Shown: positions 9,055 through 27,556, numbered from the stretch's first letter. The stretch: DNA of 64,000 nucleotides from Alphaproteobacteria bacterium (GCA_030614785.1 JAUWTJ010000010.1:615-64614); one strand, 5' to 3'. A program made the numbers and translations. Notes: generated by a model from the letters alone, not told the origin.

Positions 9055-9404
9055 CACTTCTGCCTCCCGGCCTAAAAGTCCATCTGGCGGCTGGCTACAC
9101 CGACATGCGCAAGGGCATGGATGGGCTGACTGTCCTGGTTCAGGAAGTACTGAGCCAGGATCCATTCAACGGCCATCTCTTCGCCTTCCGGGGTCGCAGG
9201 GCCAATCTGATCAAGATCGTTTACTGGGACGGAACGGGTCTGTGCCTCTTCACCAAGCGGCTCGAACATGAGGTCTTCTTGTGGCCGCCCAATCTTGAGC
9301 CAGGGCGTACGCTGTCTCTCACCTCGGCGCAACTCTCGGCCCTGATCGAGGGGATTGACTAGCACAGCCCTCAGCGCCGTTGGCGGCCTGCCGTGGCGGG
9401 GTAA
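9051..9404 (+). pseudogene. tnpB: IS66 TnpB with a premature stop near the C-terminus
   Basis: TDMRKGMDGL, LFAFRGRRANLIKIVYWDGTGLCLFTKRLE. TAG at 9360-9362 replaces the W of EGIDW; the frame continues HSPQRRWRPAVAG to TAA 9402-9404. Confidence 0.85.
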
Positions 9405-9441
9405 ATCACTACCTCTGTTGCCCAGGTCTGGAATCGTGTTT

Positions 9442-9762
9442 ATGAACATCGATCTTGCTGCCCTGCCTCATGATGTCGATACATTGCACCGGATGATCTG
9501 CGATCTGGTTGCCGAGCAAGATGGCGAGCGCGTTGAGGCGCAGGCGGAGATCGACCGACTGCGGAATATTGTAAAGACGCTCCAGCGCAGTCAGTTCGGA
9601 CGCCGCTCCGAGCACCTTGATGATGATCAGCTCCAGCTTGCTCTTGAAGACCTTGATGCTGATATCGCCAGCGCCGTAGCAAGCCAGCCGGAAACGGACG
9701 ATGAACAGGTCAGGAATGAGCGCTTACCACCGATCGTAAGCATCCCGGGAATGCACACTTGA
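9442..9762 (+). pseudogene. tnpC: IS66 transposase TnpC, N-terminal fragment only
   Basis: LPHDVDTLHRM...LQRSQFGRRSEHLDDDQLQLALE leucine-zipper region, then runs into the right IR; the DDE domain is absent. Confidence 0.85.
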
Positions 9763-9803: not shown

Positions 9804-10662
9804 CCGTGTTTTTGTCGCCGATGCCTGGGAGACGGTCTATGCCGTTGATACTACGACCGGAGAGGAAATCTGGTCCTATAACGTCGGGAGTAAGGTGACC
9901 GGCTCTGTTACCGTTGCCACGGACAATAGTGAGATTTTTGTCAATACCCGAACTGAAATCACCAAGCTGTTTGACCGTGGTGATCATGCAGAACTGGCAT
10001 GGGTAGCCAAGCTTGACATGTACAACCCCGGACGCTTTCAAAAAAACTTCAAAGCCCTTGGTGCGGAAATTACGGCCAATGGAATTGCTTTTACCGGCGC
10101 TGTCGGGGTTGCCAACCCAAAGCAAAAGTTCCCGTTCAAAATAGGGGCAGGGCTTCTCGACCGTGAGACCGGTGAAATACGGTACTATGCGGAGGGTGGA
10201 GAGGACTCGATTTCGTCCATGGTAACCGGACCGGGAGGGGAGCTCTATATTGGCAACTCGCCAATGCGTCGGGTCTTGGCAGGAGTAACCTTCGGATCAT
10301 CCAGGAGCCCCGGGCAGCCGGTCGGCGGAATTAGCAAATTCAAACCGATCTATAATGATCTTCTCGTTCGTGACGCGCTTTGGGCAGCGGCAACCCGGGC
10401 GTCAAATTCCGCACGCATTGCCGAAGAAAACCATCTTGCGGCGACGCAGGACGTCCAGCAGATCAATGCACTTCTTGCCCAGGCTCTTGGAGCAGGACCG
10501 GCCGCCGTCGCTGAGAAACGGATGAGTGGTGAGGAGTGGGAAAATCTTCGGTCTGGCATACAAGTGGTTTTGCAGGATCTGAGGCCCACCGGAAGAGATC
10601 TCGCGCAAGTTGGTAATGTTCTCGCCGAAATGGCGGTAGCCCTGGACGCAAGGGCGCAGTGA
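9804..10662 (+). pseudogene. 5'-truncated PQQ-like beta-propeller repeat protein
   Basis: The frame is open upstream of the GTG at 9895 (RVFVADAWETVYAVDTTTGEEIWSYNVGSKVTGSV = PQQ/BamB-type repeat) and begins directly at the IS66 remnant with no native start. Confidence 0.6.
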
Positions 10663-10776: not shown

Positions 10777-12213
10777 TCACGGTTCCACTGTTTGTAACTC
10801 AGGCGGAACCCAGGTTCCGTTCAGGATCGGTTCTTGAGGACGATAGGCTCTGAGTGTCAGCGCGAAACGGCCATCAGGTGCTGGTAGCCAATTTCCCTCC
10901 AGGCCTTTTCCTGGCGATTGATATTGTAGATAGAGTGTCAAGCTGCCATCGTCATTGTAGGTCAGGTCTGGCGAGCGATCCCCGATCGAGTAACGATCAA
11001 TGGAATTATCGACCAGATTGGCATCATGCCCGTACATGGTCACCGACCAGAAAGCATCGACCGGCGGCAACTGTCCTGCCGGGAAGGTCAATTGATAAGA
11101 AGCTTTGCTGCCGTCAAAAAATTGTCCGTATTCGTCCCTGGATCGCCCAAAGTATCGCCCTTCCTCAGGGTAGTTTGGTGCAATTCCCTTGAAGCTCTGT
11201 ACGATACCCCGTGTAAAGTACTCACCGGCGGCACCCAGTCTGCCTGCTTCAAGCGGGTTTCTTCTCCAGCCATTTACGATATCGCCGCCGGGCGTGTCAG
11301 CGCGGGCGCGGATGGCGAGCTTGTGAGCATCGCGTGCTGCACGGGCGAGCCCGCGTTTGCTGTCTTCGTCCAGAGTATCAAGGTTCTGATTTGGCCCGAT
11401 GTGCACTTCCGCAAAGAAATTGAGCAATGCATTTTCCGTGGCAGGTGGCGGATTTTCCGTCATGGCACGATTGATCGTTCGCCAGGAGGCCAGCGGATCT
11501 TGCTTGATCTTATAGGGAGGCCACACGTCTCGCGATGCTGGCACCGAATCTTGAGGCGTGCCCCAATAACTTAGAGGGGTAAGGAGAAACTGATCCTGCA
11601 GTTTGGAAACGTTGGACATGTCACCCTTGCCGTCGACCATAGTTCGCCCCAGCAACAACACCCAGGGCGTGGGGGTCGCCTTCAGTGTCTTTACTCCATC
11701 CGGAAGTCGTCCGTCGAAACCCTCCCTCACAATTGCATAGTGACCTGCGGCTGCGCCCGTGGCCCTTTGACTAACAACATCGAAGACATCTGATGTGTAC
11801 CCGGATAGATGAAAACTGAAGTTACGTTCTCCCATGTCCGGGTGGCTCAAAATCACAGGTTCATCGCCCACGTAAATCCAGGCGACGGAATAAACAGTAT
11901 CATTATTGGGGGTGCCACCATCCCTGTATGTAGCGTCCGCCAGTTTGTTGGCGTGATAAAAGTGGTTGATCGGAGCGTAGGGATAGTATTCCGGGTCACG
12001 GGGAATATTCGTCCACATCCAGCGTAGTTGCGACATGTAAAGATAAGGCAGTGTGTAGGGGTAAGCTGCCATGCCGACCGAGTAGGCATATTCCTCGCGC
12101 CACGGCTGCGCGTTTTCTGATTCCGCCAGCGCAGGCTGAATGCCAGACGTAATGACGCTGGCGATAATTGTCGCTGCGATCAATACGGTTCTTTTCGCTT
12201 GAAGTATTCCCAT
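10777..12213 (-). CDS. DUF1254/DUF1214 domain periplasmic protein
   Basis: Signal peptide; TPNNDTVYSVAW; PPVDAFWSVTMY...NSIDRYSIGDR; NWLPAPDGRFALTLRAYRP. Confidence 0.88.
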   Translation of the reverse strand: MGILQAKRTVLIAATIIASVITSGIQPALAESENAQPWREEYAYSVGMAAYPYTLPYLYMSQLRWMWTNIPRDPEYYPYAPINHFYHANKLADATYRDGGTPNNDTVYSVAWIYVGDEPVILSHPDMGERNFSFHLSGYTSDVFDVVSQRATGAAAGHYAIVREGFDGRLPDGVKTLKATPTPWVLLLGRTMVDGKGDMSNVSKLQDQFLLTPLSYWGTPQDSVPASRDVWPPYKIKQDPLASWRTINRAMTENPPPATENALLNFFAEVHIGPNQNLDTLDEDSKRGLARAARDAHKLAIRARADTPGGDIVNGWRRNPLEAGRLGAAGEYFTRGIVQSFKGIAPNYPEEGRYFGRSRDEYGQFFDGSKASYQLTFPAGQLPPVDAFWSVTMYGHDANLVDNSIDRYSIGDRSPDLTYNDDGSLTLYLQYQSPGKGLEGNWLPAPDGRFALTLRAYRPQEPILNGTWVPPELQTVEP

Positions 12214-12258
12214 GATTGTCTGTCCATTTGCTGGTCGATATCGACATGTGTGCCAAGT

Positions 12259-12570
12259 TCAGGTTTCCTCGGGACCAGGGGCCACTCCTGTCCGTTTGGT
12301 CTTTTGTCTTCTATTGACAGTATTGATGATGGTGTAGAGGCCCGCGACCGGAACGACGATCATTGCGCCCAGCCCGATGGTCCCGGCGATGGCGCCAATG
12401 GTGGCCCAGCCCATATCCGTCATTGAACGCCACATTTGGAGACCGTAAACCAGAAGATCAAGCGCGCGAATGCCGAGCGCGGACAGGATGGTTCCGGCAA
12501 TCGCGCAAGCGATGACGAGCTGCAAGGACGGAACAAGCAATCGCCTGGATCGAAGTTGTGAATTTGCCAT
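12259..12570 (-). CDS. Small two-TM membrane protein of unknown function
   Basis: Two hydrophobic segments, AAGGGG RBS, co-oriented between the sulfatase and DUF1254 genes. Confidence 0.55.
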   Translation of the reverse strand: MANSQLRSRRLLVPSLQLVIACAIAGTILSALGIRALDLLVYGLQMWRSMTDMGWATIGAIAGTIGLGAMIVVPVAGLYTIINTVNRRQKTKRTGVAPGPEET

Positions 12571-12582
12571 GTGCCGTTCCCC

Positions 12583-14124
12583 TTACTCTGTTGACGTCTC
12601 TTTCGTGTCCTTGTTCGCGCCTTGTTGTTGCTGCAGCTTCAACAGAACCCGTTTGACTTCTTCGGGGGAATTGAGAGCTGGCGGAATTGTGAATGAGAGC
12701 GGAGTGCGATAGTCATCGCCGGTTTTTATGCCGCCGTATTTGTAGAGGCTACCGGCGAGACGCAGGACCGGCTCATAGGCCTGGGGGATGATCCACAATT
12801 TGGTGCCCATTATGTCCACCTCTTCACGAGGGTCTTTCTCGATGTCAAAAATCATATGCCCATAAAGGTCGTGGTGCATGCGCGATGTTGGAGAAGGATC
12901 ATCGCCAACAAAGAACAACTTGAATTGCCTCCACTTTACGGCCAGAAGTTTCTTGTCGAGAAAGGTGATGATGTGCTCTCGGTTTGATTTTTCGCTCTTG
13001 CCGAGGAAAAAGTCGCGTTGGTCGACGCCGTCATAGGCCCGGTCTGTCGGAAAGGTTGCGTCGGCAAGCGAGGCGAAGGTCGGGAAGAAGTCGAGGATCG
13101 AGACGATCTCGTTTGTTTCTCTGCCTGAGGGGATGACACCGGGCGCACTCATGATCATTGGTGTCCGGATAGAGCCCTCATATGCACTTCCAAGGTATCC
13201 GCGATAGGGGCCGGAGTTTGAAACGGTCGGGTATTCAGATGCATCCGGTCCGTTGTCACTGGCGTAGACAATGATAGTGTTGTCGGCAAAACCTGCGTCC
13301 ACCAAAGCCTTGCGGATTTGGCCAACCCGATAATCGTGCTCTGCCATCATGTCTGCAAAGTCGCCGACACCGGTCTTGCCCTTGAAGTCCGGATTGGGAA
13401 CATAAGGATGGTGCATCAGCGACCAGGATACAAACAGGAAGAAGGGTTCCTCAGAGCCTTTGGCCTGCTTTATGTAGTTGATGGACTTCTCAGCGATCAA
13501 CTCATCCATCTTGCCGCGCATTTCCCGGTCGTAGCGGGCGATTTTCTGCACCGGACCATTTCGTTTTGATGACAAAATATACGGCCATTCGCTTTCGCGG
13601 CCCTGATAACCCTGAGCGTCATAGCGATAGACCACGCCAGTGCTAAACGGAAATCCCCACCACTCGTCAAAGCCTTGATCCGTTGGATAGCGGCCCTGGC
13701 TGTCGCCAAGGTGCCACTTTCCAAAAATGGCAGTCTTGTAACCGGCATCGGAAAGCATTTCGGCCATTGTATATTCCCAAGGCGCCAGGCCTTGAGGAAA
13801 GCCGGGAATGCCGGCGCGTCCCGTTCCAGAACGTATGGGAAGGCGTCCGGTCATGAGCGCCGAACGGGAAGGTGTGCATTCCGGTTCTACATTGAAATTT
13901 GTAAAGCGCGTACCTTCTGCGGCTAGTTGATCAAGGCTGGGCGTCGGGACCCCGCGGATTGGCCCGCCACCGTATGCGCCAAGTTCACCATAGCCAAGAT
14001 TATCGCTCAGCATAAAAACAATATTGGGGCGCCGGGGCATCTCATCTGCAGTGGCTGATGATATCGCGGCCAGATTTGTACAAACTGCAAGAAGCAGCAG
14101 GCGTGAAGTGATTGATGTATACAT
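12583..14124 (-). CDS. Arylsulfatase (Cys-type, secreted)
   Basis: PNIVFMLSDNLG, CTPSRSALMTGR, GKWHLG, SDNG; signal peptide from MYTSITS (14124). Confidence 0.92.
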   Translation of the reverse strand: MYTSITSRLLLLAVCTNLAAISSATADEMPRRPNIVFMLSDNLGYGELGAYGGGPIRGVPTPSLDQLAAEGTRFTNFNVEPECTPSRSALMTGRLPIRSGTGRAGIPGFPQGLAPWEYTMAEMLSDAGYKTAIFGKWHLGDSQGRYPTDQGFDEWWGFPFSTGVVYRYDAQGYQGRESEWPYILSSKRNGPVQKIARYDREMRGKMDELIAEKSINYIKQAKGSEEPFFLFVSWSLMHHPYVPNPDFKGKTGVGDFADMMAEHDYRVGQIRKALVDAGFADNTIIVYASDNGPDASEYPTVSNSGPYRGYLGSAYEGSIRTPMIMSAPGVIPSGRETNEIVSILDFFPTFASLADATFPTDRAYDGVDQRDFFLGKSEKSNREHIITFLDKKLLAVKWRQFKLFFVGDDPSPTSRMHHDLYGHMIFDIEKDPREEVDIMGTKLWIIPQAYEPVLRLAGSLYKYGGIKTGDDYRTPLSFTIPPALNSPEEVKRVLLKLQQQQGANKDTKETSTE

Positions 14125-14149
14125 GTCTACCCCGAAGTGGTTTGGAGAT

Positions 14150-16387
14150 TTAGCGATTGCCCAGACGTATAGTAACGTTTTCGATTTTTCCCTCAAATTC
14201 ATACGGGGAGTTGTATTGGGAGCCGACGGCAGTATTTGCATCCCTGCCAATGTCCATGCCTTCATGAGAAATTCGTGCCGCCATTGTCTTTGGCATTTCA
14301 AGTGTTCCTGCGACCTCGCCGTTTATCAACAAAGTCGCCGTTCCCATCAACTTTCCCGTCTTGTCGAACCGGAGCGAGATTTGAGATGCGCCACGAGGCA
14401 CCTTTGTATCCGATGTGACTTTGTACATCGTTCCGACACTTTTGACGTTGGCAAAATAGTTATACTCATAGACGGCACGTCCCTTGTGAATGTAAAGGAC
14501 CAGACCGGAATCGTGATTGCCGTTGGCAAATAGCACACCATTTTCGGATCCGGTTGGCCGGTCAATGCTGGCCGTGATCGAAAAACTCCTGTCGATAAAG
14601 TCAGGTGTTGCAAAGTCAGTAACGTGCGAGGCTCTCGGGTAGTAGATGAATTCGTGCTTTTTCGGGTTCTTTGCAGCTCTCTTCTTCATCTCCTCTTTGA
14701 TTTTCGGGCCGGGATTTTCCAGATCAACCATCAATGCCGCATTGACCTGTTCGCCTTCGCGGCGCCAAACCTCTTTCATCCGGGCGAGTTTTTCGGGATA
14801 TGTGTTGGCAAGATCAGTTGCGTGGGTGAAATCTTCCTCAAGATTGAACAGGGACCAGACATCGTCCGTATATTTTGTTCCGCGCTTATGAACCGCAGTA
14901 GCCATCCACCCGTGATCATAGATGCCGCGATTGTGAGCCATACGGTAGAACTGTGTTTTCCTGGCGTCAGGAGCCTCTGCCTCTGCAAAGGCGTATGTCA
15001 TGCTTTGTCCATCGACCGGGAGTTGCTGCTTGCCATCGACGCGGTCTGGTATCTCGATCCCAAGGAGATCGAGGACTGTGGGCATCACGTCACTAACAAA
15101 ATGATACTGCTCCCGAATGCCGCCTTTCGCACCCCATTTTTCATTCAGACCGTTGACGATAAAGGGAACTGAAATGCCGCCACCAGCAGCATGCTGTTTG
15201 AAATAGGGGAAAGGCGTGTTGCTAACTTGCGCCCACCCGAGGGGGTAGTTGGGAAGCGTATTGGGCCCACCGATCTCGTCGAGGCGGCGCAGGATATCGT
15301 CAGCTGTTTCAAAAATGCCATTGTTGTTGGTTGTATGATTGATCGATCCGCCGGGGCTGCCTTCCTGACTGCCGCCATTGTCGGACAAGACGATGACGAT
15401 GGTATTGTCGAGGACACCGAGCACTTCAAGCTCACTCAGGAGCCGTCCGATTTCTTCGTCTGTTTGGGTGAGGAAGCCGGCATAGGTCTCTTGAAGGCGC
15501 GCATAGACTTGTTGCTGCGTCGTGTCCAACGTTTCCCACGGCTTTACCCTTGCATCCGTTGCGGGAAGACGGGACGATTGCGGAACAAGGCCAAGGTCCT
15601 TCTGTCGCTGAAAGCGTTCGGTGCGCACTACGTCCCATCCACGATCATACCGGCCGCGCTGTTCGATCAAAAGGGATTGCGGTGCCTGGTGCGGCGCGTG
15701 CATCCCCGGTGTCGCAAGATACATAAAAAAGGGGCGATCCGGCGTGTAGGATACATGATTGTGTGCCATCTCGATCGCATGATCGACCAGATCAACTGTG
15801 AGATTATAACCCTCGGGGTATGTTTCTGAAATAACCTGGTTGTCACGGACCAGTTCTGGTGCGAACTGATCCGTCGAACCCGTCATAAAGCCGTAGAATC
15901 GATTAAAACCTTTGCCAAGGGGCCAATGGGTAAAGGGCCCTGCGGGCTGGCTATCCTTGCGCGGTGCCAAGTGCCATTTGCCAATGGCGTAAGTGCTGAT
16001 CCCTTCGTCCTGAAGGATTTGCGCAAGGGTTGCGGATTGGTCACTGATCCGACCACGGAAGGCGGGGAATGCCGGGCCAAAATCATAGCGAGCGATCAGG
16101 CCCATGCCGACCCGATGGGGGTCGCGTCCTGTGAGCAGAGAGGCGCGTGTCGGCGAACAGGTGGGTGTTGCATGGAAATTGTTGAATGTCAGTCCATCAG
16201 CAGCAAGGGCGTCAATATTGGGTGTCTCGATTTCCGAGCCATAGGCTCCCAGGTCGCCGTAGCCGACGTCGTCGAGAAGAATCAAAAGGATGTTGGGGCG
16301 CTCGCTCTCCTGCATAGAATGAGCGGGTCCTGAATAGAAAACACCAATTAACAGGAGTGCCCGAAGGGCCTTTAGTTGAAACCGCAT
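14150..16387 (-). CDS. Arylsulfatase (AtsA-like, Cys-type) with a C-terminal beta-sandwich extension
   Basis: PNILLILLDDVG, CSPTRASLLTGR, GKWHL, SDNG; signal peptide from MRFQLK (16387) with GGAGGG RBS. Confidence 0.92.
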   Translation of the reverse strand: MRFQLKALRALLLIGVFYSGPAHSMQESERPNILLILLDDVGYGDLGAYGSEIETPNIDALAADGLTFNNFHATPTCSPTRASLLTGRDPHRVGMGLIARYDFGPAFPAFRGRISDQSATLAQILQDEGISTYAIGKWHLAPRKDSQPAGPFTHWPLGKGFNRFYGFMTGSTDQFAPELVRDNQVISETYPEGYNLTVDLVDHAIEMAHNHVSYTPDRPFFMYLATPGMHAPHQAPQSLLIEQRGRYDRGWDVVRTERFQRQKDLGLVPQSSRLPATDARVKPWETLDTTQQQVYARLQETYAGFLTQTDEEIGRLLSELEVLGVLDNTIVIVLSDNGGSQEGSPGGSINHTTNNNGIFETADDILRRLDEIGGPNTLPNYPLGWAQVSNTPFPYFKQHAAGGGISVPFIVNGLNEKWGAKGGIREQYHFVSDVMPTVLDLLGIEIPDRVDGKQQLPVDGQSMTYAFAEAEAPDARKTQFYRMAHNRGIYDHGWMATAVHKRGTKYTDDVWSLFNLEEDFTHATDLANTYPEKLARMKEVWRREGEQVNAALMVDLENPGPKIKEEMKKRAAKNPKKHEFIYYPRASHVTDFATPDFIDRSFSITASIDRPTGSENGVLFANGNHDSGLVLYIHKGRAVYEYNYFANVKSVGTMYKVTSDTKVPRGASQISLRFDKTGKLMGTATLLINGEVAGTLEMPKTMAARISHEGMDIGRDANTAVGSQYNSPYEFEGKIENVTIRLGNR

Positions 16388-16420
16388 TGTCAAACCCTCC
16401 GCGAACAAGTCAGGAACTTA

Positions 16421-16467
16421 TTATTGACATTTATGTCGATAACTCTTATCTACATAAATGTCAATAA
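16421..16467. promoter_or_regulatory. 47-bp near-perfect palindrome carrying two mirror-image TTGACA promoters; probable TetR operator
   Basis: TTATTGACATTTATGT-c-GATAA-ctc-TTATC-t-ACATAAATGTCAATAA (22-bp arms, 1 mismatch). Confidence 0.8.
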
Positions 16468-16478
16468 GGGATAAGATT

Positions 16479-17165
16479 GTGGCCACCACAAGAAAACGAC
16501 GCAAACCGGCAGAGGCGCGAGCTCTGGTATTAAAAACGGTTGAGGAAAGGCTCGTGAAAGACGGTCCGGGGGCCTTTAGCCTTCTTGACGTTGCCGAGCA
16601 GTCGGGGCTTGCCCACTCTACCATCCTGCACCACTTTGGCAGCGTGGAAGCACTCAAGGGTGCCGTCACCCGGCATATTCTGGAACGTGTCCTGAAAGAT
16701 GCCATCGCGATCCTGCAGCCCGAGCAGCCCCAGGTTCTGACCATCGACCGGATCATTGCGCTGTTTATGGAACAGATGGACAATGACGAAACCGGTCACC
16801 TGTTATCCTGGCTTGTTCTCAATCCCGTAGATCAGAAGAACTGGACCGGCGATCAGGCAAACGCCATCTCGCAACATTTGCAGGAGCTGGCAGCGATTGC
16901 AGATGAGCGCGTCAGCCTTGGAGCTGAGGAGAATGTGCTTGTCAGCACGAATGACAACCTGTCACAAGGCCAGGCCGTTATCTTGATGGTTGGGACGTCA
17001 CTCATCGGACACTTGCTTGTCGGCGCCTTTTTGGGTCGCGCGCTTGGTCTGCCGCAGGCGGGCTACAAGCAGACCTATATTGGTTGGCTGTCTGATCTTG
17101 TAGCCGCACTGGTTGGCGTCAATCCGGCGGTGCGCGAAGACAGGAAAAAGCAGACAGAAGAGTAG
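16479..17165 (+). CDS. TetR/AcrR family regulator
   Basis: FSLLDVAEQSGLAHSTILHHFGS HTH. GTG 16479 with AAGGGA RBS is preferred over ATG 16458, which lies inside the palindrome. Confidence 0.88.
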   Translation: MATTRKRRKPAEARALVLKTVEERLVKDGPGAFSLLDVAEQSGLAHSTILHHFGSVEALKGAVTRHILERVLKDAIAILQPEQPQVLTIDRIIALFMEQMDNDETGHLLSWLVLNPVDQKNWTGDQANAISQHLQELAAIADERVSLGAEENVLVSTNDNLSQGQAVILMVGTSLIGHLLVGAFLGRALGLPQAGYKQTYIGWLSDLVAALVGVNPAVREDRKKQTEE

Positions 17166-17219
17166 GATGTGTGCGGGCTGGTCTGTGATCGATGCCGAAA
17201 CGGGGCCGGGCTCGCGCCT

Positions 17220-17627
17220 CTAACCCGTTGCTGAGCAAGCGCGTATTATATCCTGCCCGATACGGACCGGTTTCAGGCTTGAGGCTGATATGCAGCACCA
17301 CACCGATTTGGCTTCAACAACAATGCCATCACCGCGTTTGATGATCATGTCATAATAGGCGCGAACACCCCTGACCTTTCTCAAGATGACATCGACACAG
17401 AGACTGTCGTCAAGGAAAGACTGCTGTCGGTAGTCGATCTCATGTCGTGTTGCCATCCAGAGATATTGTGTGAGCATGAGCGGGGTTGCCCGGCTCTGCC
17501 ATTGCGCTGTTACACCGGCCTGTATCCACTTTAGATAGGACGCATTGTTCACGTGGTTCAGATGATCAATGTCATCGCTGTTTGGCGTCACGTACCACTT
17601 GAAGATTTCATCAATCATTTTGATCAC
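17220..17627 (-). CDS. Acyl-CoA thioesterase (4HBT/YbgC hotdog fold)
   Basis: DDIDHLNHVNNASYLKW motif. Confidence 0.85.
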   Translation of the reverse strand: MIKMIDEIFKWYVTPNSDDIDHLNHVNNASYLKWIQAGVTAQWQSRATPLMLTQYLWMATRHEIDYRQQSFLDDSLCVDVILRKVRGVRAYYDMIIKRGDGIVVEAKSVWCCISASSLKPVRIGQDIIRACSATG

Positions 17628-17647
17628 CTTTTGAGTCTAGGGCAGCT

Positions 17648-18979
17648 TCAGGCGGACGCAGGAAACACAGGCCAGCGGTCGACAATTTCACCTTCATCAT
17701 AGACTGCAATATCGCCAAATTGAAGGAATACCGCCTCACTTTGATGGGGTCGAAGAAAAACGAAATCATTTGGATCAAGGTCAACTTCGGAAGGTCCATT
17801 GAGCATCTCCTGATTACTTGATCGCCCGAACAACCCATTATAGTGCAGCCCTTGAGGTGAGACGGGATCGGCCATCCAATGGCCTCCGTAAATGAAAATA
17901 GTCTTGCGGCTGTTCGGGTCCCAAAGCTCGGTTATTTTGTTAAGGCCTCCCAGAAGAGGGACCCTTATACCCGACATGCTCTTGATGACCGGTGCCGCAA
18001 TAAATGAGGCGGGCTGGAATCCTTCCAGCATATCGGTATCGAAGTGTGTTGGTTTTACGAGAGCCGAGCCAACGGAAACTTCATTTGCCAGGCTGGTGTC
18101 CTGATAAAGGCGGTAGGTCGGACTTCCTGCAGCGTTACGGGTCATCAGGTCTGGATTGTAGTCTGCGCCCATTACCTCCTGCGCAGTCTTGAGAGCGTCA
18201 TTATACAGGCCCCAGGCCGCATTTGTCGCCCGCGCACGAAGGCCGAGCACTTTTGGAACAGCGGCCAGATGGGGTTCGTAACCCATGAACCCGGAGAAGG
18301 TGAGGCGCTTGTTTGCGGCGATCATTGTGATGGCTTCGGCAATATCTTCATTGCCTTCAAAGCCTCCCCGGTGCAGCCCGACGTCAATCTCGAGGTTGAG
18401 ATTCAATTTCAGATCCCGGGCCTCGGCCACGGCAGCGTATTCCGCAATCCGCCGGGGCGTATCGACCAGCCATTGGATGCCGTTCAGGGCCTCGTTTGCG
18501 GTCGGTTGTTGGGTTTTGTAAAAACCGGCCACGGCAGCAACCGGCAGCGGTTTACCGAGCAGAATATCTGTCGTGCCTGGCCGGGTAACAAGGTGCTTCA
18601 GGAATTCAAGATTGAACACCATCATTCGGTTTGATCCGGAGCGCCCGGCGACCTCGTCCAGCAGGTTATGACTGGGCAGAGACTTTGAGACGATCCGGTA
18701 CTTCATGCCAGAGGGCAAATTCTGCATCAATGTGTCGATGTTACTGTGCAGGCGCGCGCGATCAATGATCAGAGTTGGTGCCGCAATCCCGGCCCGCTTC
18801 AAGGCATCAGACATTCGCGTGAAGTAGGGGTCAACCGGTGCGCTGGCGTCGCGTGGCCTGGCAAGCAAGAGGCCGCCCGTGGCCGCGAGCACGCCGCTGG
18901 CGGCCAGGACCTTGCGACGCGAATAGTTACCTGGCACTCTTGCAAGTATTTCTTCGGCTCTATGCCTGAATGTCGACAT
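17648..18979 (-). CDS. DSD1-family PLP-dependent enzyme (alanine-racemase-like barrel) with a Tat motif
   Basis: RIVSKSLPS (PLP Lys), EIDVGLHRGGF, GFMGYEPH, AGSPTY; N-terminal SRRKVLAASGVLAA. Confidence 0.8.
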   Translation of the reverse strand: MSTFRHRAEEILARVPGNYSRRKVLAASGVLAATGGLLLARPRDASAPVDPYFTRMSDALKRAGIAAPTLIIDRARLHSNIDTLMQNLPSGMKYRIVSKSLPSHNLLDEVAGRSGSNRMMVFNLEFLKHLVTRPGTTDILLGKPLPVAAVAGFYKTQQPTANEALNGIQWLVDTPRRIAEYAAVAEARDLKLNLNLEIDVGLHRGGFEGNEDIAEAITMIAANKRLTFSGFMGYEPHLAAVPKVLGLRARATNAAWGLYNDALKTAQEVMGADYNPDLMTRNAAGSPTYRLYQDTSLANEVSVGSALVKPTHFDTDMLEGFQPASFIAAPVIKSMSGIRVPLLGGLNKITELWDPNSRKTIFIYGGHWMADPVSPQGLHYNGLFGRSSNQEMLNGPSEVDLDPNDFVFLRPHQSEAVFLQFGDIAVYDEGEIVDRWPVFPASA

Positions 18980-20363
18980 CAAACACCTTCCTGAGGTAGG
19001 AGTTGAGAAGCTTTGCCTTTGGGTCAACTTCCTGTCGTACCCGTTTGAAGTCATCCCAATGCCTGTACAGCTCTTTGAAATCAGCCGACTCGAGGGTGTT
19101 CAGTTTCCCCCTATGCGGCCTGCCGCCACGGCGCTTCATCACGGGCTCGATATCAGTGAACAGAAACTGATAATCGTCTTCATGGTGGACGTGAACTGCG
19201 ATCGAAATGCGGTCACAGCCCTCAAAGGGGCTGAGCCAGGCTGTGTCACCCTTGATGTAACGCACTTCAATAGGGAAAAACACGTCGCGATGATCGCGTT
19301 CCAGGATCCCGATGATCTCGTCGAGCGTATCGAAAGCCTGAGCAACGGGCATGTGGTACTCCAGTTCATTGAAGCGCATGGTCCGCTCCGAAGATAACAG
19401 TTTCCAGCTTGTGTCGGAAACGGTTTCCGCTTCGATATCCTTGATGGCGGAGCGACCAAGGGCTCTGCGTAGAGGCGGGATAAACGAGACTGTGTCCCTC
19501 AGTTTCTTCAGCGACACCAAGCCTTCATTGTCATCGGACATGGAGTTTCCACTTGGCGCGTTGTCGGTTTTGTTGTGGGCAATAGCCAGGCAATGACCTG
19601 TAAACGGGACATAGAAGAACTCGAACGACCGATGCGTTTCAAAGAGCTGCGTCGCGCGGGACATGAGGGTATCATATGGTTCCACCCATGTTTTCCGCTC
19701 CAGATAGTGAGAGGGTTCAACGTGATATCCAGCCTGGGTAATGATTCCCAGAGCCCCCAGGGAGACTTGCGCCGCCGCAAAAAGATCGGCGTTCCGCTCA
19801 GACGAGCACTCGAGAATATCGCCATTGGCTGCAACGAGACGCAGCGATCTGACATCAGCCGACATGGATGGGGCATTCTTTCCTGACCCGTGGGTCGCCG
19901 TTGAAATAGCCCCGGCCAGTGTCTGTTTGTTGATGTCGGGCAGATTTGGAAATGCCACGCCGTGCGTTTCCAGTTCCGGTGAGAGGCGGGCCAGTTTACC
20001 GCCTGCGTTGAGGACAGCCAGGCCGGCTTCCGGATCGACAGATTTCACTCCTCTGATCCGGTCAAGAGAGATCATGGTTGTGTCGGTGGGCACGAGCGGC
20101 GAAAAGCTGTGACCGGAACCCACAGCACGAACCGGTCCTGAACTTTCCATCAATATCGTTCTTAATTCATCTTCGTTGCGTGGGCCAAAACGGTTCGCCG
20201 GATAGCTGATTTGATTGCCAGACCAGTTTCGCCAAGCCAAGATATCGCCGTGCGAAGTCTCGGGATTTGGTGAGGATGTGGCGCGCTGTCGCAGGAGAGC
20301 CACCCCGGTTAGACCAGCGGCCCCGGCTACTCCGAGAAGTGCGAGAACTTTACGTCGGTCCAT
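18960..20363 (-). CDS. FAD-linked oxidase, D-arabinono-1,4-lactone oxidase (ALO)-like, with a Tat motif
   Basis: WRNWSG, RAVGSGHSFSP, QTLAGAISTATHGSG, RFNELEY, FFPIEVR, GGRPHRGK; N-terminus MDRRKVLALLG. Confidence 0.88.
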   Translation of the reverse strand: MDRRKVLALLGVAGAAGLTGVALLRQRATSSPNPETSHGDILAWRNWSGNQISYPANRFGPRNEDELRTILMESSGPVRAVGSGHSFSPLVPTDTTMISLDRIRGVKSVDPEAGLAVLNAGGKLARLSPELETHGVAFPNLPDINKQTLAGAISTATHGSGKNAPSMSADVRSLRLVAANGDILECSSERNADLFAAAQVSLGALGIITQAGYHVEPSHYLERKTWVEPYDTLMSRATQLFETHRSFEFFYVPFTGHCLAIAHNKTDNAPSGNSMSDDNEGLVSLKKLRDTVSFIPPLRRALGRSAIKDIEAETVSDTSWKLLSSERTMRFNELEYHMPVAQAFDTLDEIIGILERDHRDVFFPIEVRYIKGDTAWLSPFEGCDRISIAVHVHHEDDYQFLFTDIEPVMKRRGGRPHRGKLNTLESADFKELYRHWDDFKRVRQEVDPKAKLLNSYLRKVFDVDIQA

Positions 20364-20743
20364 CAGTTTTCCTTCGCTGCCTGGTTAAGCGATCGTCCGC
20401 CCAGGTATTGAATAAACAATTCCAGGTCCTGCTTTGTGCAAGCCGCGCAGCTGCCGAGCGCAGGCATTCCCTCAAATCCGTTGATCGTGTGAGAGTAGAG
20501 AGCGTCAAAACCTTTTGCCCATCTGGCATCCCAGGACGCACCGTCCCCGAAGAGCGGTGCCCCGGAGTCTTTGTCGCCGTGACAACCAACGCAAGTGACG
20601 TCGAAGAGCTCGAGCTGCTCCTCGGTCAATTCGGGCGGCGGACCATAGGTTTGCACGCTTTCCCGCTCAGCATTGCAAGCGTTCAAGGTGGCCACGCAGG
20701 CAAAGAGGCAAAGCCACCGGGATATGGTGATGTGCGTTTTCAT
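20363..20743 (-). CDS. Monoheme cytochrome c5, probable lipoprotein
   Basis: CVGCH heme motif, GAP, WDARWAKG, GMPALG; lipobox-like LNAC; TGATG overlap with the oxidase start. Confidence 0.85.
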   Translation of the reverse strand: MKTHITISRWLCLFACVATLNACNAERESVQTYGPPPELTEEQLELFDVTCVGCHGDKDSGAPLFGDGASWDARWAKGFDALYSHTINGFEGMPALGSCAACTKQDLELFIQYLGGRSLNQAAKEN

Positions 20744-20779
20744 AAAAGTAGTTATAACTATCTTTATGAAAACAGGCAA
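20736..20779 (-). promoter_or_regulatory. 38-bp palindromic operator overlapping a TTGCCT-N17-TATAAC promoter and the cytochrome ATG
   Basis: GTTTTCATAAA-AG-TAGTTATAACTA-TC-TTTATGAAAAC (19-bp arms, 2 mismatches); -35 at 20779-20774, -10 at 20756-20751. Confidence 0.72.
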
Positions 20780-20784
20780 GTGAC

Positions 20785-21414
20785 CTATGTCACAATCACA
20801 AAGAAAGCACTGATCGCAAGGGCCGCATCGCGGATTACAGCTTTTCGATTAAGGCCGGGCTCGTCGAATATGAGTTCCATCGTTGCATACCCAAGGTCGA
20901 TGGCCAGACGGGATTGCCGGTAGACTTCGGCCCGGGTTGAGTTTGGAAGGGACGGCGCTGTGGTATCAGCAATGGCCTTGGCCATCGCGGCATGGGACTC
21001 AGTACGGATACTCAGAAGGCTTGGAATTGCGCGCAGGCTTCGCGTGATCCACGGGCCACCCGGAAACGCCTCGGTTGTGCGGACGGTTTCGGAGATTATT
21101 TTTTCAATCTGGTGGACGCTGATAGAGAATACGTCTTGTTCTGTCTGCTCTTCGATGATGGTGAGGATGAGAGTGTTCTGCTTCTCCATCAAGCGATTCC
21201 CCAGAACTTTCAGGATGTCGTATTTGTCCGAAAAATAGCGATAGTAAGCCGGGGGCGTGACACCGGCGCGTTCAACGATCGCATTTGTCGAGATACTCTC
21301 GATACCGATCTCTTCAAGAAGTTCTCCCGTTGCCATCAACAGTTTTTCATAGGTTGCACGTGCGCGCGCTTGCCGGGGTTCGCGTGGTCCATTGCTTTGT
21401 GCGGCTGAAGACAT
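20785..21414 (-). CDS. TetR/AcrR family regulator
   Basis: RQARARATYEKLL, ISTNAIVERAGVTPPAYYRYFSDK. Confidence 0.92.
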   Translation of the reverse strand: MSSAAQSNGPREPRQARARATYEKLLMATGELLEEIGIESISTNAIVERAGVTPPAYYRYFSDKYDILKVLGNRLMEKQNTLILTIIEEQTEQDVFSISVHQIEKIISETVRTTEAFPGGPWITRSLRAIPSLLSIRTESHAAMAKAIADTTAPSLPNSTRAEVYRQSRLAIDLGYATMELIFDEPGLNRKAVIRDAALAISAFFVIVT

Positions 21415-21466
21415 GAAGATCTGTACTCTTGTGGTTTCGGTGGTGGACGGACCTGCAACGTAGCCC

Positions 21467-21500
21467 TTGACTGCACCTGAAAAGAATAGTTTATACTATC
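21467..21500 (+). promoter_or_regulatory. Candidate sulfatase promoter (TTGACT-N19-TATACT) overlapped by a variant of the TetR operator core
   Basis: TAGTTTATACTATC at 21487-21500 versus TAGTTATAACTATC at 20749-20762 (11/14). Confidence 0.45.
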
Positions 21501-21571
21501 ATACAATATATCCGTTGGGAAGGTTTAACACAGTGTTTCAGCCGGTGCGATAAAGGATCTGCCCCCGGAGA

Positions 21572-23263
21572 ATGTCCAGCCCAAACAAGAGTGAGGCGAT
21601 GATGAGTGAGAATCTGGATCCGCAAACCGGCAGGGCCGCAGATCTTCCTGGTGTTATTCGCGCCCGGATAAGGCAAGCTGTTTCAGCCCGCCCCCTGGCG
21701 GCGACGGCTTGGGTTGTCGCAGGGGTTGGCCTCGGCATTCTTCTTACCACCCTTGTTCTTCTCACGTTCCCCGACCCGGAACGCAATGGCCTGACGGCAG
21801 AGGACTTTGCCGACAAGACTTTGCCAGCTTCAGTGAAGCTGGTCGTTGAGAAGCGCACGCGTAGACCGAATGTGGTTTTCATTCTTGCCGATGATCTGGG
21901 TTACGGGGACATTAAAGCCTATGGCCCAACGCCGATCAATACGCCTAATCTTGATCAACTGGCGCAAGAGGGCGTTCGTTATACCAGCTTTTACGCCGCA
22001 GCTTCCCTTTGCTCACCTTCACGAGCAGGATTGCTGACAGGCCGATACGCCTTGCGAACGGGCATTTCATACCCGTTCCAAAATGAGGAAGTCAAAGGTT
22101 TGGGCGGATGGGTCGAAAGCCGGTTTGTCTCTTTGTTGGCCTACCTTGGCACTGCAGATCTCAAGTCGGGTGGAAACCTCGTCAACGGCTTACCGCCGTC
22201 GGAATTAACTATCGCGGAAGGTCTGAAGCAAGCGGGATATCGCACCGGCATCGTCGGCAAGTGGCATCTGGGTGACTTCAAACGTTGGCCGAAATATCAT
22301 CCTCATAAAAATGGATTTGACTGGTTCGTCGGGTTTAATGCGTCCAATGACGATTGGCCTGTTGCCTTTTATGACAACGATCAGGAGATCATTGCCGATA
22401 TCGGGTTCGAACAGGAAGCCTACACACAGATTTTCACGCAAGAAGCTGTTGAATTCATTGAGCGAAACCAGGAACAACCCTTCTTCTTGTTCTTCTCCCA
22501 CAAGGATCCCCATCAACCGTTCTTTCCTTCAAGTGGTTTTGCCGGAAAATCGAAAGGCGGTAGTTACGGCGATGCGGTCGAGGAACTGGATGGCAGTGTT
22601 GGCACTATCCTTGAAACTCTTGAGCGCCTTGATCTTGCCGAGAATACGGTTGTCATATTCACGAGTGATAACGGACCCTGGTATGAGGGAAATCCTGGAG
22701 GCTTACGCGGCCGTAAGGGCATGAGCTATGAGGGCGGGTACAAGGTGCCTTTCCTCATGCGATATCCCGGGCGAGTTGAGCCTGCAACGGTCAATGATGC
22801 CCCGGCTATGGGGATTGATTTGTTGCCTTCGATATTTGCAATGGCCGGTGTCCGCCTGCCTGATGACAGAGTGATTGATGGCATCAGCCTGGTTGACGAG
22901 ACCGGTGCTCCCCTGGCGAGTGACGTTGATCGCGGACCGATTTATTTTTTCAGCGGATATGACTTTGAGGCTGTGCGTCAGGGGCGGTACAAATTGATTG
23001 AACGCAACAGCACCTATGGGTGGCCGATTCCTCTCGACAAACCGGTCGGCTTTGCGGCAGTGACAATGCCCCGATATTCACCTGAAGGTGACGAGCGATC
23101 GATTCCGAAACTCAATTCCTGGCCAAAACTCTACGACGTCAATCTGGATCCGTCCGAGGCCTACAATCTTTCCGAATTGTATCCCGACGAGGTGACACGA
23201 CTTGAAGAGCAACTTGAAACCTGGCGCACAGAGTTCTATCGGGATCCTCGTGGGCGCCAGTGA
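21572..23263 (+). CDS. Sulfatase (Cys-type) with an N-terminal membrane anchor
   Basis: RPNVVFILADDLGYGD, CSPSRAGLLTGR, GKWHLG, SDNGPW; TM segment WVVAGVGLGILLTTLVLLTF. Confidence 0.92.
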   Translation: MSSPNKSEAMMSENLDPQTGRAADLPGVIRARIRQAVSARPLAATAWVVAGVGLGILLTTLVLLTFPDPERNGLTAEDFADKTLPASVKLVVEKRTRRPNVVFILADDLGYGDIKAYGPTPINTPNLDQLAQEGVRYTSFYAAASLCSPSRAGLLTGRYALRTGISYPFQNEEVKGLGGWVESRFVSLLAYLGTADLKSGGNLVNGLPPSELTIAEGLKQAGYRTGIVGKWHLGDFKRWPKYHPHKNGFDWFVGFNASNDDWPVAFYDNDQEIIADIGFEQEAYTQIFTQEAVEFIERNQEQPFFLFFSHKDPHQPFFPSSGFAGKSKGGSYGDAVEELDGSVGTILETLERLDLAENTVVIFTSDNGPWYEGNPGGLRGRKGMSYEGGYKVPFLMRYPGRVEPATVNDAPAMGIDLLPSIFAMAGVRLPDDRVIDGISLVDETGAPLASDVDRGPIYFFSGYDFEAVRQGRYKLIERNSTYGWPIPLDKPVGFAAVTMPRYSPEGDERSIPKLNSWPKLYDVNLDPSEAYNLSELYPDEVTRLEEQLETWRTEFYRDPRGRQ

Positions 23264-23291
23264 GGCAGATTGGGCAACCGTCATTCTCCGG

Positions 23292-25592
23292 CTAACGTGA
23301 CAAACGAGTCACTAAATCCCTATAGGTCGGATCATCGGGAAAGACTCTCGCCAGCCGTTCAGCGTATTTTTGCAGTTCAGGAAAATCATGTTGTTGATTG
23401 GCAAGAGTTAATCCCAGGTTCAGAAGGTCCGGATCAAACGGGTACTCCTCCAGTGCAGTATCCAGTATTGTGTGGGCCTTTGCGAGATGACCGTAGGATT
23501 GAAGGGCCACCGCGTAGACATATGAAAATCGAGCAGTAATGGGGGCCTGTTTTGCTGCGGCCTCCAAATGAATCATGGCCTCAACAGTGTTTTTCTGGCG
23601 AATGTAGGCAAGGCCCAAAGCATGGTGGATTGAAGCATCTCCCTTCGTGGTCTTGAGCCCCTCAAGCAAAACATTCATTGCCTCTTCGTCTTGACCCTGC
23701 ATCCGCAGAAGTTCCGCGAGGTTTACCCATGAAGGTGCAAAGGCAGGATCTATGTCCATGGCTTTTCGATAAGCTGCGGCGGCTTTTTCCATGTCACCTT
23801 GCCCCTGATAGACGAGAGCACGGTTGAGCCGTCCTTCGCCACGCCAGGCACTTTCTTCATTGGCCTCAAGAAGCTCAGCCATTGCCACTTTGAATGTCTC
23901 TGACAATTCATCTGACATGGCTGCCTGGGGGATGTCAGCAAGGGCAGTTGCCGCCTCAATTCGAACGGCTTTCAGGTCGTCCGAGAGTAGCGGTGCGAGA
24001 TAGTCCACGCGTTCCTTTTCTGAAAGCATGGTCAGAGCCCTGATTGCTCCCATACGAAGAAGAGGCTCCTCACTTGACAAGTGCGACCTGGCAACCGAGA
24101 TCAAGGCGAGATCAGCTACGCCAGGCACAAGGCTGAGGGCTGTTGCCCTGGTCAGCGCGGGCTCCGCCTCGTCTTCGATCAGGTCCCGCAGAGGCTTCCG
24201 GGCAGCAGGGTCGCGCCGACGTGCTGCGGAAAGAGCCCTGATATGAGACGCTGCATCGGGCTCTGATCCATACCACCGCGTGATATGTCCGGCGGCAGTA
24301 TCGTTGGTCATGTCCTTGTGGCACCTGGTGCAGGCGTTTGGCGTGTTCAGGTCCCGGGATAAATCCGGGCGAGGAACTTTGAAGCTGTGATCCCGACGTG
24401 CGTCGATACCCATGTAAGTTGTTTCTGGCATGTGGCAATTGACGCAGAGGGCTCCGGTTGATCCGCTTTGATGGCGGTGATGGACAGGGGCGTCGAAAAT
24501 CTTTGGAGAATGGCAGGTCGTACATAGTGAGTTGCCATTCTGCTTGAGATCCAGACTGTGGGCGTTATGACAATTGGTGCAGGTCACCCCGGCTGCCGCC
24601 ATTTTGCTTTGCATGAAAGAGCCCCAGACGTAAACTTCATCAAGGATTTGCCCGTCTGGATGATACAGGCCAGGGTCGAGAAGACCAGGAGAAAACTGAT
24701 CCAGAAAAGCGAGACGTGGATCAATATGTTTGGTCAACGGCGTGCGGCGCGAATGGCATGCTGCACACACAGCAATCTCACCTTTCTCGTGCGATTCACC
24801 CTGGTTTCTGGCGGTGTGTTCATCGTCATCACGTTCAAACCTTGTTTTCTGCGAATCCGAAAACCGGAGAACATTGTCACTGGCAGAGCCTTTATCAAAC
24901 ACCTTTGTCGAACGGACTATATCATTCATTGCTTCAATGTGAGTTTTGGTTTCACCATGGCAGGAGGCACAGGAGACATTGATGGCGGAAGCTGTCGAGC
25001 TAAAAAGGTCATTCGACACATCATAATTTCGAGAGAGACCTGATGAATGGCAGTCTGCACACATACCGTTCCAGTTTTGACTTGGCGAAAGCCAGTGCAG
25101 CCGATCCCCGCGCGGTGTTACATTTTCCTCATAGAGGTGAAACCAACGATCTCCGCCCTCAGATGCTGATCGCGTATCCCAGGCCCATGGGAGAGCTTGC
25201 AGTTTTCCTTGTTTGGTTTCAACGAGATATTGTTGCAGGGGGAAAACACCAAAAGTATAACGAATACGGAATGTCTCTTGTAATCCCGGTTTGTCAGTTT
25301 GTGAAACAACCGCCAGGAAGATATCGCCAGTCTGAGTAAATACGGTTTGCTCTCCCGAGTGGGTCAGTGCAACATTCCTGAAATCGCCCAAAACAGTTGA
25401 TGTATTAGCATGATCCATGGCTTTGGCATGGTGGGACTTGCGCCAGGCAGTGACCTCGGCCCGGTGACAGGCCGCGCAAGCCTCTTCATTACTGTCGGCA
25501 ACAATTAGTGGTGCGGCGTTTGCCACCGTATGCATACCCCATAGGGCAAGTACGAGTATTGAGACAGGGGTTCTGAACACGTTTTTCTCCAC
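23292..25592 (-). CDS. Periplasmic octaheme c-type cytochrome fused to HEAT- and TPR-like repeats
   Basis: Eight CxxCH motifs (CAACH, CADCH, CASCH, CAACH, CTNCH, CTTCH, CVNCH, CTRCH); signal peptide; C-terminal TPR patterns such as AAAAYRKAMDIDPAFAPSWVNLA. Confidence 0.88.
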   Translation of the reverse strand: MEKNVFRTPVSILVLALWGMHTVANAAPLIVADSNEEACAACHRAEVTAWRKSHHAKAMDHANTSTVLGDFRNVALTHSGEQTVFTQTGDIFLAVVSQTDKPGLQETFRIRYTFGVFPLQQYLVETKQGKLQALPWAWDTRSASEGGDRWFHLYEENVTPRGDRLHWLSPSQNWNGMCADCHSSGLSRNYDVSNDLFSSTASAINVSCASCHGETKTHIEAMNDIVRSTKVFDKGSASDNVLRFSDSQKTRFERDDDEHTARNQGESHEKGEIAVCAACHSRRTPLTKHIDPRLAFLDQFSPGLLDPGLYHPDGQILDEVYVWGSFMQSKMAAAGVTCTNCHNAHSLDLKQNGNSLCTTCHSPKIFDAPVHHRHQSGSTGALCVNCHMPETTYMGIDARRDHSFKVPRPDLSRDLNTPNACTRCHKDMTNDTAAGHITRWYGSEPDAASHIRALSAARRRDPAARKPLRDLIEDEAEPALTRATALSLVPGVADLALISVARSHLSSEEPLLRMGAIRALTMLSEKERVDYLAPLLSDDLKAVRIEAATALADIPQAAMSDELSETFKVAMAELLEANEESAWRGEGRLNRALVYQGQGDMEKAAAAYRKAMDIDPAFAPSWVNLAELLRMQGQDEEAMNVLLEGLKTTKGDASIHHALGLAYIRQKNTVEAMIHLEAAAKQAPITARFSYVYAVALQSYGHLAKAHTILDTALEEYPFDPDLLNLGLTLANQQHDFPELQKYAERLARVFPDDPTYRDLVTRLSR

Positions 25593-25604: not shown

Positions 25605-26181
25605 GGTCAGGACTCATTAAATCCACCATATGACGATAGCCGCAATACAGATCGCTGAGAAGTAGGTGTGAGAGCAACGGTCAGACACATAAGACGCGGA
25701 CGCCCCTGTCCGTCGCAAACCGCATGCAGCTTGCTGTTCAAGCCGCCTTTTGTGCGGCCAATGTCGCGGGGAACATCCCCTTTTTTGCCAGACTGGCGGC
25801 TGTTCGGTGGGCTTTCAGGTGCGTGGCATCAATCTGTAGCTGCTCAGGCGCATCGTGATCCGTCGCCAGACTTGTGAAGATCCGGTCGAAGACCCCCATC
25901 TCACTCCAGCGAATGAAACGATTATAAAGGGTCTTGTGCGGACCATATTCCTTTGGGGCGTCACGCCACTGAAGGCCACGTTTTAGCACGTGAATAATGC
26001 CGCTGATCACTTTCAAATCGTCAACCCGCGGCACGCCATGCGGCTTTGGAAAACAGGGCTCAATACGTTCGAGTTGATCGGGCGTCAGATAGAACAGGTC
26101 ATTCATCAGAAAAGAATCCTTTTCTTCAATGAATCACAGCTCAAACCCTTTGGGAATCCTCAAAATTAATAGGTCCTGAGC
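25605..26181 (-). mobile_element. Internally deleted IS5-family (IS427-type) element, 577 bp, flanked by CTAG
   Basis: IRs GGTCAGGACTCATTAA / TTAATAGGTCCTGAGC (13/16); CTAG at 25601-25604 and 26182-26185. Confidence 0.9.
25617..26106 (-). pseudogene. IS5 transposase, frameshift-type, catalytic middle deleted
   Basis: OrfA ...QWRDAPKEYGPHKTLYNRFIRW...IDATHLKAHRTAAS; A AAA AAG slippery site; the -1 frame reads IGRTKGGLNSKLHAVCDGQGRP and then jumps to the terminal DRCSHTYFSAICIAAIVIWWI. Confidence 0.88.

Positions 26182-27480: not shown

Positions 27481-27556
<76 letters not shown>

Follow-up and report, generated by a model that had tools for sequence, protein, structure and literature searches.

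How do exported sulfatases become active at a locus that encodes no maturase, and do the uncharacterized proteins encoded beside them take part? The question was raised by a 64,000-nucleotide stretch of DNA (the window) from a marine Alphaproteobacteria bacterium, taken from an incomplete cold-seep metagenome bin. An island of genes at positions 10777 to 25592 encodes three sulfatases, a protein with the domains DUF1254 and DUF1214, and a c-type cytochrome with eight hemes fused to a HEAT/TPR solenoid. In oceans, sediments, soils, and guts, sulfatases govern how far sulfated organic matter is accessible, and they are not known to be activated by enzymes other than FGE and anSME. The original prediction for this locus held that the DUF1254/DUF1214 protein and the octaheme protein might be periplasmic partners of the sulfatases, possibly including an alternative route of maturation.

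The island itself was found to be an ordinary kind of locus, and the link between the cytochrome family and sulfatases across phyla was strong. A second and narrower link ties one DUF1254/DUF1214 subfamily to a conserved set of three sulfatases. By a modest balance of the evidence, the island appeared to be a TetR-controlled locus for the catabolism of sulfate esters, with an unlinked maturase and two conserved accessory families. For the octaheme cytochrome, a redox-partner role appeared more likely than formylglycine formation.

The octaheme cytochrome and its gene neighborhoods

The cytochrome gene (positions 23292 to 25592, minus strand) encodes a predicted periplasmic protein of 766 aa with a signal peptide, TPR, HEAT, and cytochrome Pfam matches, and exactly eight CxxCH motifs, all of which were conserved in 100 homologues. 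As originally described, this octaheme HEAT/TPR protein converges on sulfatase 3: the two genes lie tail to tail, with their stop codons 28 bp apart. An NCBI assembly made independently showed the same junction, as did a Logan contig spanning it. The AlphaFold2 model, built without hemes, had a predicted local distance difference test score (pLDDT) of 91.4 and a predicted template modeling (TM) score of 0.91. The heme domain was nearest to OcwA (PDB 6I5B; Foldseek E of 2.4e-8, TM score of 0.53 on the target, 15% identity), the sole heme-protein structural match, and all other Foldseek matches were generic TPR proteins. OcwA was also matched with phmmer across residues 329 to 457 (E of 6e-7). 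In addition to the hemes, the protein has an inserted beta-rich domain (approximately residues 55 to 150) and a HEAT/TPR solenoid of 320 residues, and its TPR region gave a subthreshold match to PF23914, TPR_CcmH_CycH (29 bits against a cutoff of 42). No special active-site heme motif of catalytic multiheme cytochromes (NrfA, octaheme reductases, or OcwA type) was seen in the protein, as CxxxCH and CxxxxCH were absent and no CxxCK was found on reading the sequence. The family is large, with more than 5,000 proteins at E ≤ 1e-10 and at least 597 species in the genome collection, and its hosts include Proteobacteria, Acidobacteriota, Gemmatimonadota, Myxococcota, and other phyla.

Gene neighborhoods were sampled at 80 cytochrome loci, extending at most 10 kb to either side, and all open reading frames (ORFs) were clustered without bias. 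The sole recurrent neighbor was a sulfatase, Sec exported and Cys type, found at 31 of the 80 loci. The density of sulfatase genes fell with distance from the cytochrome gene, from 10.4 per 100 kb at 0 to 2 kb to 3.4 at 2 to 6 kb and 0.45 at 6 to 10 kb. The ratio between the innermost and outermost zones was 23-fold (p = 1e-10 by gene and 4e-9 by locus). Among immediate neighbors classified by Pfam, 17 of 146 were sulfatases, followed by HAD, DUF3604, and histidine kinase, with 3 each. Sulfatase-linked loci were found in Pseudomonadota, Acidobacteriota, Gemmatimonadota, and Myxococcota, and the sulfatase gene lay upstream, downstream, divergent, or convergent; in several pairs both genes ran in one direction, separated by −4 to 100 bp. 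In Shewanella nanhaiensis, the cytochrome gene sits amid five sulfatases, and in two related Kordiimonadaceae bins, sulfatases that are not orthologous touch the cytochrome gene.

In 46 of 49 neighboring sulfatase ORFs the motif site could be aligned, and all of these were Cys type. A candidate Ser-type neighbor, suggested by a SAPSR pattern match in one of the Kordiimonadaceae bins (L012), proved to be off-site on alignment. Within 2 kb of the cytochrome gene there were 30 sulfatase genes, of which 15 had the most frequent motif, CTAGR, and the remainder had CSPTR, CSPSR, CTPSR, CAPSR, and others. The N termini of 21 CTAGR sulfatases were read, and they looked Sec type rather than twin-arginine. 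These arylsulfatase-type enzymes (L035:12217-13809 and homologues), in which CTAGR takes the place of CxPxR, form an orthogroup that is 77 to 92% identical across Gammaproteobacteria, Acidobacteriota, and Bacteroidota. When the search was reversed, starting from the CTAGR sulfatases, the cytochrome was directly upstream in one of three sampled cases. The others adjoin HAD, a PF01663 phosphodiesterase, and a Phenol_MetA_deg outer membrane channel, with two DUF1254/DUF1214 genes in one case.

Since its sole recurrent neighbor is an exported Cys-type sulfatase, the cytochrome was taken to be a redox partner of sulfatase systems, and the family is very probably coupled in function to exported sulfatases in many bacteria. 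No paper describing this neighborhood link was found. Literature searches on formylglycine with multiheme, sulfatase with octaheme, multiheme cytochrome with tetratricopeptide, and DUF1254/DUF1214 likewise returned nothing relevant.

Sulfatases, their maturation, and the DUF1254/DUF1214 module

By their PF00884 matches and Cys motifs, the three sulfatase genes of the island are assigned to the S1 family of formylglycine-dependent sulfatases, with the corresponding predicted activity. Sulfatase 2 (14150 to 16387, minus strand; 745 aa; PF00884 E of 8e-60) is encoded by the first gene of an operon and has the motif CSPTR, a Sec signal peptide, and an AtsA-like core with an additional C-terminal part of ∼200 aa. 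Its best PDB matches were 7ALL and Pseudomonas AtsA, 1HDH (E of 1e-71 to 7e-77). Sulfatase 1 (12583 to 14124, minus strand; 513 aa; PF00884 E of 7e-52) has the motif CTPSR and a Sec signal peptide and best matched the arylsulfatase 7AJ0 (E of 6e-70); its ORF extends to 14301, and the Met of the signal peptide places the start at 14124. Sulfatase 3 (21572 to 23263, plus strand; PF00884 E of 3e-63) has the motif CSPSR and a predicted N-terminal membrane anchor, indicated by a hydrophobic segment, and its PDB matches were steryl-sulfatase and GALNS (E of 2e-63). The metal-binding motifs SDNLGYG, LDDVGYG, and ADDLGYG were found upstream of CTPSR, CSPTR, and CSPSR, respectively. The Pfam matches and motifs thus bear out the original description of three exported CxPxR sulfatases of differing architecture.

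Sulfatase 2 is followed by sulfatase 1, a small protein, and the DUF1254/DUF1214 protein, with gaps of 25, 12, and 45 bp, which support a single operon; the latter two gaps agree with the earlier placement of the small membrane protein and the DUF1254/DUF1214 protein in the sulfatase operon. The small protein (12259 to 12570, minus strand; 103 aa) has two predicted membrane helices and a weak, subthreshold match to DUF6460.

The report that no FGE or anSME gene is present in the 64 kb proved correct. No Pfam match to FGE (PF03781) or Radical_SAM was obtained among the ∼50 ORFs scanned in the window, which included the gene-like ORFs of at least 150 aa, the FGE motif GN[VALIM][WFY]EW was absent from its six-frame translation, and a tblastn search of the window with the anSME of locus L004 gave no match. 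The significance originally attached to this absence could not be sustained. Sulfatase maturases are usually unlinked, and one commonly serves many sulfatases; together with the incompleteness of the source bin, this means that the missing gene carries little weight. The L004 locus itself, from an Acidobacteriaceae bin, encodes on one strand the cytochrome, an anSME (TIGR03942, 489 bits, above the cutoff), and a CTAGR arylsulfatase in this order (L004:10001-15438). Among the loci searched, it is the only one with a maturase beside a cytochrome-sulfatase pair. This order is the most telling of the limiting results: it ties the cytochrome more firmly to the sulfatase system, yet it also indicates that the cytochrome coexists there with a classical maturase and is not a stand-alone substitute for it.

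The last gene of the operon (10777 to 12213, minus strand) encodes the DUF1254/DUF1214 protein of 478 aa, with a Sec signal peptide followed by the domains PF06863 and PF06742 in order (E of 6e-33 and 6e-34; 114 and 117 bits, above the cutoff). Its AlphaFold2 model had a pLDDT of 92.5, and the best PDB matches were 3U07 and 2P3Y (Foldseek E of 2e-31). As these structures are unannotated, no chemistry is assignable from the model. The protein belongs to a tight subfamily at 55 to 75% identity. No characterized member and no NCBIfam model were found for this family or for the octaheme-TPR family, in agreement with the original view of both as uncharacterized.

In a metagenome scan, a sulfatase formed the top genuine neighbor cluster of DUF1254/DUF1214 relatives, and relatives with 57 to 70% identity cluster with orthologues of the window sulfatases. 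Loci L148 and L149 encode, all co-directionally, a TonB receptor, sulfatases resembling 1, 2, and 3, a pyrroloquinoline quinone (PQQ) propeller, the DUF1254/DUF1214 protein, and AraC, with 48 to 53% identity to the window sulfatases and 57% to the DUF1254 protein. Parts of the same set were present in L085, L087, and L088, the last also with a dehydrogenase of the sugar-lactone/alditol oxidase (ALO) family. These clusters indicate that the three sulfatases, the DUF1254/DUF1214 protein, and the dehydrogenase form a conserved module, for which no published description was found.

A further family, DUF3604, was encountered near both accessory proteins. Its gene overlaps the DUF1254/DUF1214 gene at start and stop in L150 (164-3834), and it lies directly downstream of the octaheme-TPR gene in L019, L051, and L057 (about 12200-14200). 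Sulfatases may, to judge from this recurrence, be accompanied by a broader guild of periplasmic proteins as yet unstudied.

The genes separating sulfatases 2 and 3 are not mentioned in the original description. The first of them, encoding a TetR-family regulator (16458 to 17165, plus strand; PF00440 E of 6e-5, just under the cutoff), is divergent from the sulfatase operon. The divergent region contains a perfect 16-bp inverted repeat, TTATTGACATTTATGT ... ACATAAATGTCAATAA, with a 15-bp spacer (16420 to 16466), the right arm of which covers the TetR start codon. The repeat is likely the TetR operator and is put forward as a candidate.

A second TetR-family regulator (20785 to 21414, minus strand; PF00440 E of 6e-11), divergent from sulfatase 3, heads a unit of four further genes on the same strand. 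A mono-heme cytochrome c (20363 to 20779; PF13442 E of 1e-11) likely serves as the electron acceptor of the next product, a flavin adenine dinucleotide (FAD)-linked oxidoreductase of the ALO family with a TAT-like signal (18960 to 20363; PF01565 and PF04030; TIGR01679, 471 bits, above the cutoff). In L088, a homologue of this dehydrogenase (39% identity) is encoded next to orthologues of DUF1254 and sulfatase 3. The unit continues with a pyridoxal phosphate (PLP) enzyme of the Ala_racemase_N fold with an RR-type (TAT-like) signal (17648 to 19054; PF01168 E of 3e-16) and ends with a 4HBT-type thioesterase (17220 to 17627; PF13279 and PF03061), which is also among the public gene calls. The PLP enzyme gave a weak BhcC-like NCBIfam match, and the public gene call of 443 aa sets its start near 18979.

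Function of the island and competing explanations

Read as a sulfate-ester catabolic locus, the island would work as follows. The three Sec-targeted Cys-type sulfatases would be brought into the formylglycine form by an FGE or anSME whose gene lies at another site in the genome, and the activated enzymes would strip sulfate from a periplasmic substrate. On that substrate, the DUF1254/DUF1214 protein may have a conserved accessory role in the periplasm, either binding it or catalyzing an additional hydrolysis. The FAD dehydrogenase and the cytochrome c would oxidize the released alcohol or sugar, feeding the respiratory chain. The octaheme cytochrome, in a separate transcription unit, would serve sulfatase systems as a facultative redox partner in the periplasm and would not be the formylglycine maturase.

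Several observations weigh against this reading. The unlinked maturase in the source organism is an assumption of it. The recurrent co-occurrence suggested in the original prediction was confirmed insofar as both accessory families recur beside sulfatases in unrelated organisms, well above the local background, but a sulfatase accompanied only 8 of 65 DUF1254/DUF1214 loci, relatives usually being without one, and only the 31 of 80 cytochrome loci given above, leaving 49 with no sulfatase inside 10 kb. The neighborhood statistics proposed there were similarly divided, with the 23-fold density near the cytochrome set against these 49 loci and against the closest relatives of the window cytochrome (56% identity), for which a sulfatase was 8 kb away or missing. 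One DUF1254/DUF1214 relative with 71% identity pairs with DUF3604 instead of a sulfatase. Conservation does not extend to the small membrane protein: L087 has an outer membrane channel-like ORF in its place, and L085 has no ORF of at least 60 aa there. The cytochrome and sulfatase 3 genes, being convergent, are not co-transcribed. Pfam scans detected no TonB-dependent receptor or glycoside hydrolase in the window, and no transporter was found in the island. The sequencing runs found for the source were low-depth cold-seep DNA runs only, with none of expression.

A further difficulty concerns the adjacency itself. Temperatibacter marinus, for which a complete genome is available, encodes a homologue of the cytochrome (45% identity) beside tRNA-Ala(GGC) (L151:13055-13130), FYDLN_acid, and aroA, as in the window, but oriented the other way and unaccompanied by sulfatases. 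The adjacency in the window could thus be due in part to the chance of where the island inserted. Taken further, the cytochrome would be a resident of the tRNA-Ala/aroA region, and a sulfatase island borne by insertion sequences (ISs) would simply have landed alongside. Such an origin would fit the IS66 and IS5 remnants flanking the island, the convergence of the cytochrome and sulfatase 3, and the clustering of sulfatase 1 to 3 and DUF1254 orthologues elsewhere without the cytochrome. However, relative to the tRNA, the window and T. marinus carry the cytochrome gene in opposite orientations, the GC content of the cytochrome gene (0.52 to 0.53) is island-like, and an IS5 fragment lies between the cytochrome and the tRNA. 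The sulfatases touching the gene in the Kordiimonadaceae bins (L003 and L012), together with the family-wide enrichment, argue for selection on proximity. Overall, an incidental adjacency is considered rather unlikely, at about one chance in a few.

A more consequential explanation is that the octaheme-HEAT/TPR family is a dedicated periplasmic partner of Sec-exported Cys-type sulfatases that takes part in generating formylglycine, or in maintaining it by redox chemistry, after export, perhaps specialized for CTAGR arylsulfatases. If true, this would constitute a third route of sulfatase activation, based on heme c and independent of the oxygen-dependent FGE; it is judged improbable. In its explicit form, the protein would be an alternative periplasmic formylglycine-generating system, in which the solenoid binds the unfolded CxPxR/CxAxR segment after Sec translocation and the hemes take the two electrons of Cys oxidation. 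In its favor, formylglycine formation is oxidative, and the cytochrome combines redox centers with a domain of a peptide-binding type. The pattern expected of a maturase is also visible, in that the link is to sulfatases as a class, with many motifs represented within 2 kb, the CTAGR enzymes among them; the linked sulfatases are all Cys type, the CTAGR N termini that were read look Sec type, and the motif scan detected no FGE motif in either the window or the related loci that it covered. In Escherichia coli, a third maturation system, still unidentified, has been inferred. Set against this are the canonical anSME between cytochrome and sulfatase in L004, which tells directly against the alternative maturation route originally suggested, the many family members with no sulfatase nearby, and the closest relatives and T. 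marinus, which show no sulfatase link. No conserved catalytic signature was identified, the literature searches yielded nothing, and we know of no precedent for formylglycine formation dependent on heme c. An autonomous system of this kind was accordingly given little credence.

The electron sink of the original prediction places the cytochrome instead after desulfation, where it would oxidize, or pass on electrons from, redox-active products such as the phenols and hydroquinones released from aryl sulfates. The commonest partner is indeed a highly conserved arylsulfatase-type enzyme, whose other recurrent neighbors include the Phenol_MetA_deg channel, and the heme domain is closest in fold to OcwA, a multiheme cytochrome regarded as a multifunctional terminal reductase. 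Yet this role leaves the TPR/HEAT domain without a task, and the linked sulfatases are of diverse subfamilies and presumably release different products. We regard it as a long shot. The broader assignment of the cytochrome as a facultative redox partner, within a sulfate-ester catabolic locus, is retained. Cultured hosts of the two families, including Shewanella nanhaiensis, Microbulbifer species, Pseudomonas oligotrophica, and Marinobacterium mangrovicola, make these roles directly testable.

Island borders and comparison with known systems

Traits of a genomic island were present in the window in the form of a tRNA-Ala border, lower GC content, and IS remnants. The GC content of the island was 0.52 to 0.56, against 0.57 to 0.65 for the core genes on its right. 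At the left edge, IS66-family remnants (8506 to 9762, plus strand; PF01527, PF05717, and PF13007) comprise a helix-turn-helix transposase ORF, TnpB, and only the N-terminal leucine zipper part of TnpC. On the right, an IS4/IS5 transposase fragment (DUF4096; 25738 to 26106, minus strand; PF13340 E of 3e-21) adjoins the cytochrome gene, and tRNA-Ala(GGC), detected with ARAGORN (27481 to 27556, minus strand), divides the island from the core genes FYDLN_acid, aroA, cmk, and rpsA. No integrase family was detected in Pfam scans of the window, and a search for an att-type repeat of the tRNA-Ala end yielded a chance 13-mer only. Read depth over the tRNA-Ala stretch in metagenomes was ∼400 to 500×, against 3 to 7× around it, as expected for a sequence common to many organisms.

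Some further features were recorded outside the island. A 255-aa ORF after the IS66 remnants (9895 to 10662) had no family match, and a protein with a PEP-CTERM sorting signal is encoded just to their left (7177 to 8049), with no exosortase gene seen in the window. Farther away, a Sulfotransfer_4 (PF17784) ORF and a DsbA-like ORF (59474 to 60789, minus strand) overlap by ∼100 bp, have ambiguous starts, and adjoin a PAS histidine kinase.

Sulfatase clusters with an adjacent maturase are exemplified by Klebsiella atsBA and by Mycobacterium atsA with FGE. Like these, the window groups exported formylglycine-type S1 sulfatases with accessory genes, and L004 contains the classical anSME-sulfatase pair. 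Unlike them, the window has no maturase gene and carries the DUF1254/DUF1214 and multiheme-TPR proteins, which are foreign to those systems. At the level of single enzymes, Pseudomonas aeruginosa AtsA (1HDH) aligns with the first ∼545 residues of sulfatase 2 (E of ∼1e-71), where the Cys-type CSPTR motif is found. AtsA is a cytoplasmic protein of 536 aa, whereas sulfatase 2 has the Sec signal peptide and the C-terminal extension. The DUF1254/DUF1214 protein shares its two-domain fold with Vibrio parahaemolyticus VPA0106 and VPA0735 (3U07 and 2P3Y; TM scores of 0.64 to 0.75), which are structural-genomics entries with no assigned function and hence offer no mechanism.

For the cytochrome, the nearest system is OcwA of Thermincola potens, a nonaheme cytochrome of the outer cell wall. 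The window protein has eight hemes, shares 15% identity with it, and differs by the beta-rich insert and the HEAT/TPR solenoid, as well as by its predicted periplasmic location in Gram-negative, mostly aerobic hosts. The solenoid in turn recalls CcmI/CycH and NrfG, in which TPRs hold unfolded segments of polypeptide, with the match of the window protein to the corresponding PF23914 model lying below the cutoff. In those systems the TPR region belongs to a heme-lyase component, whereas in the window it is fused to a mature multiheme cytochrome.

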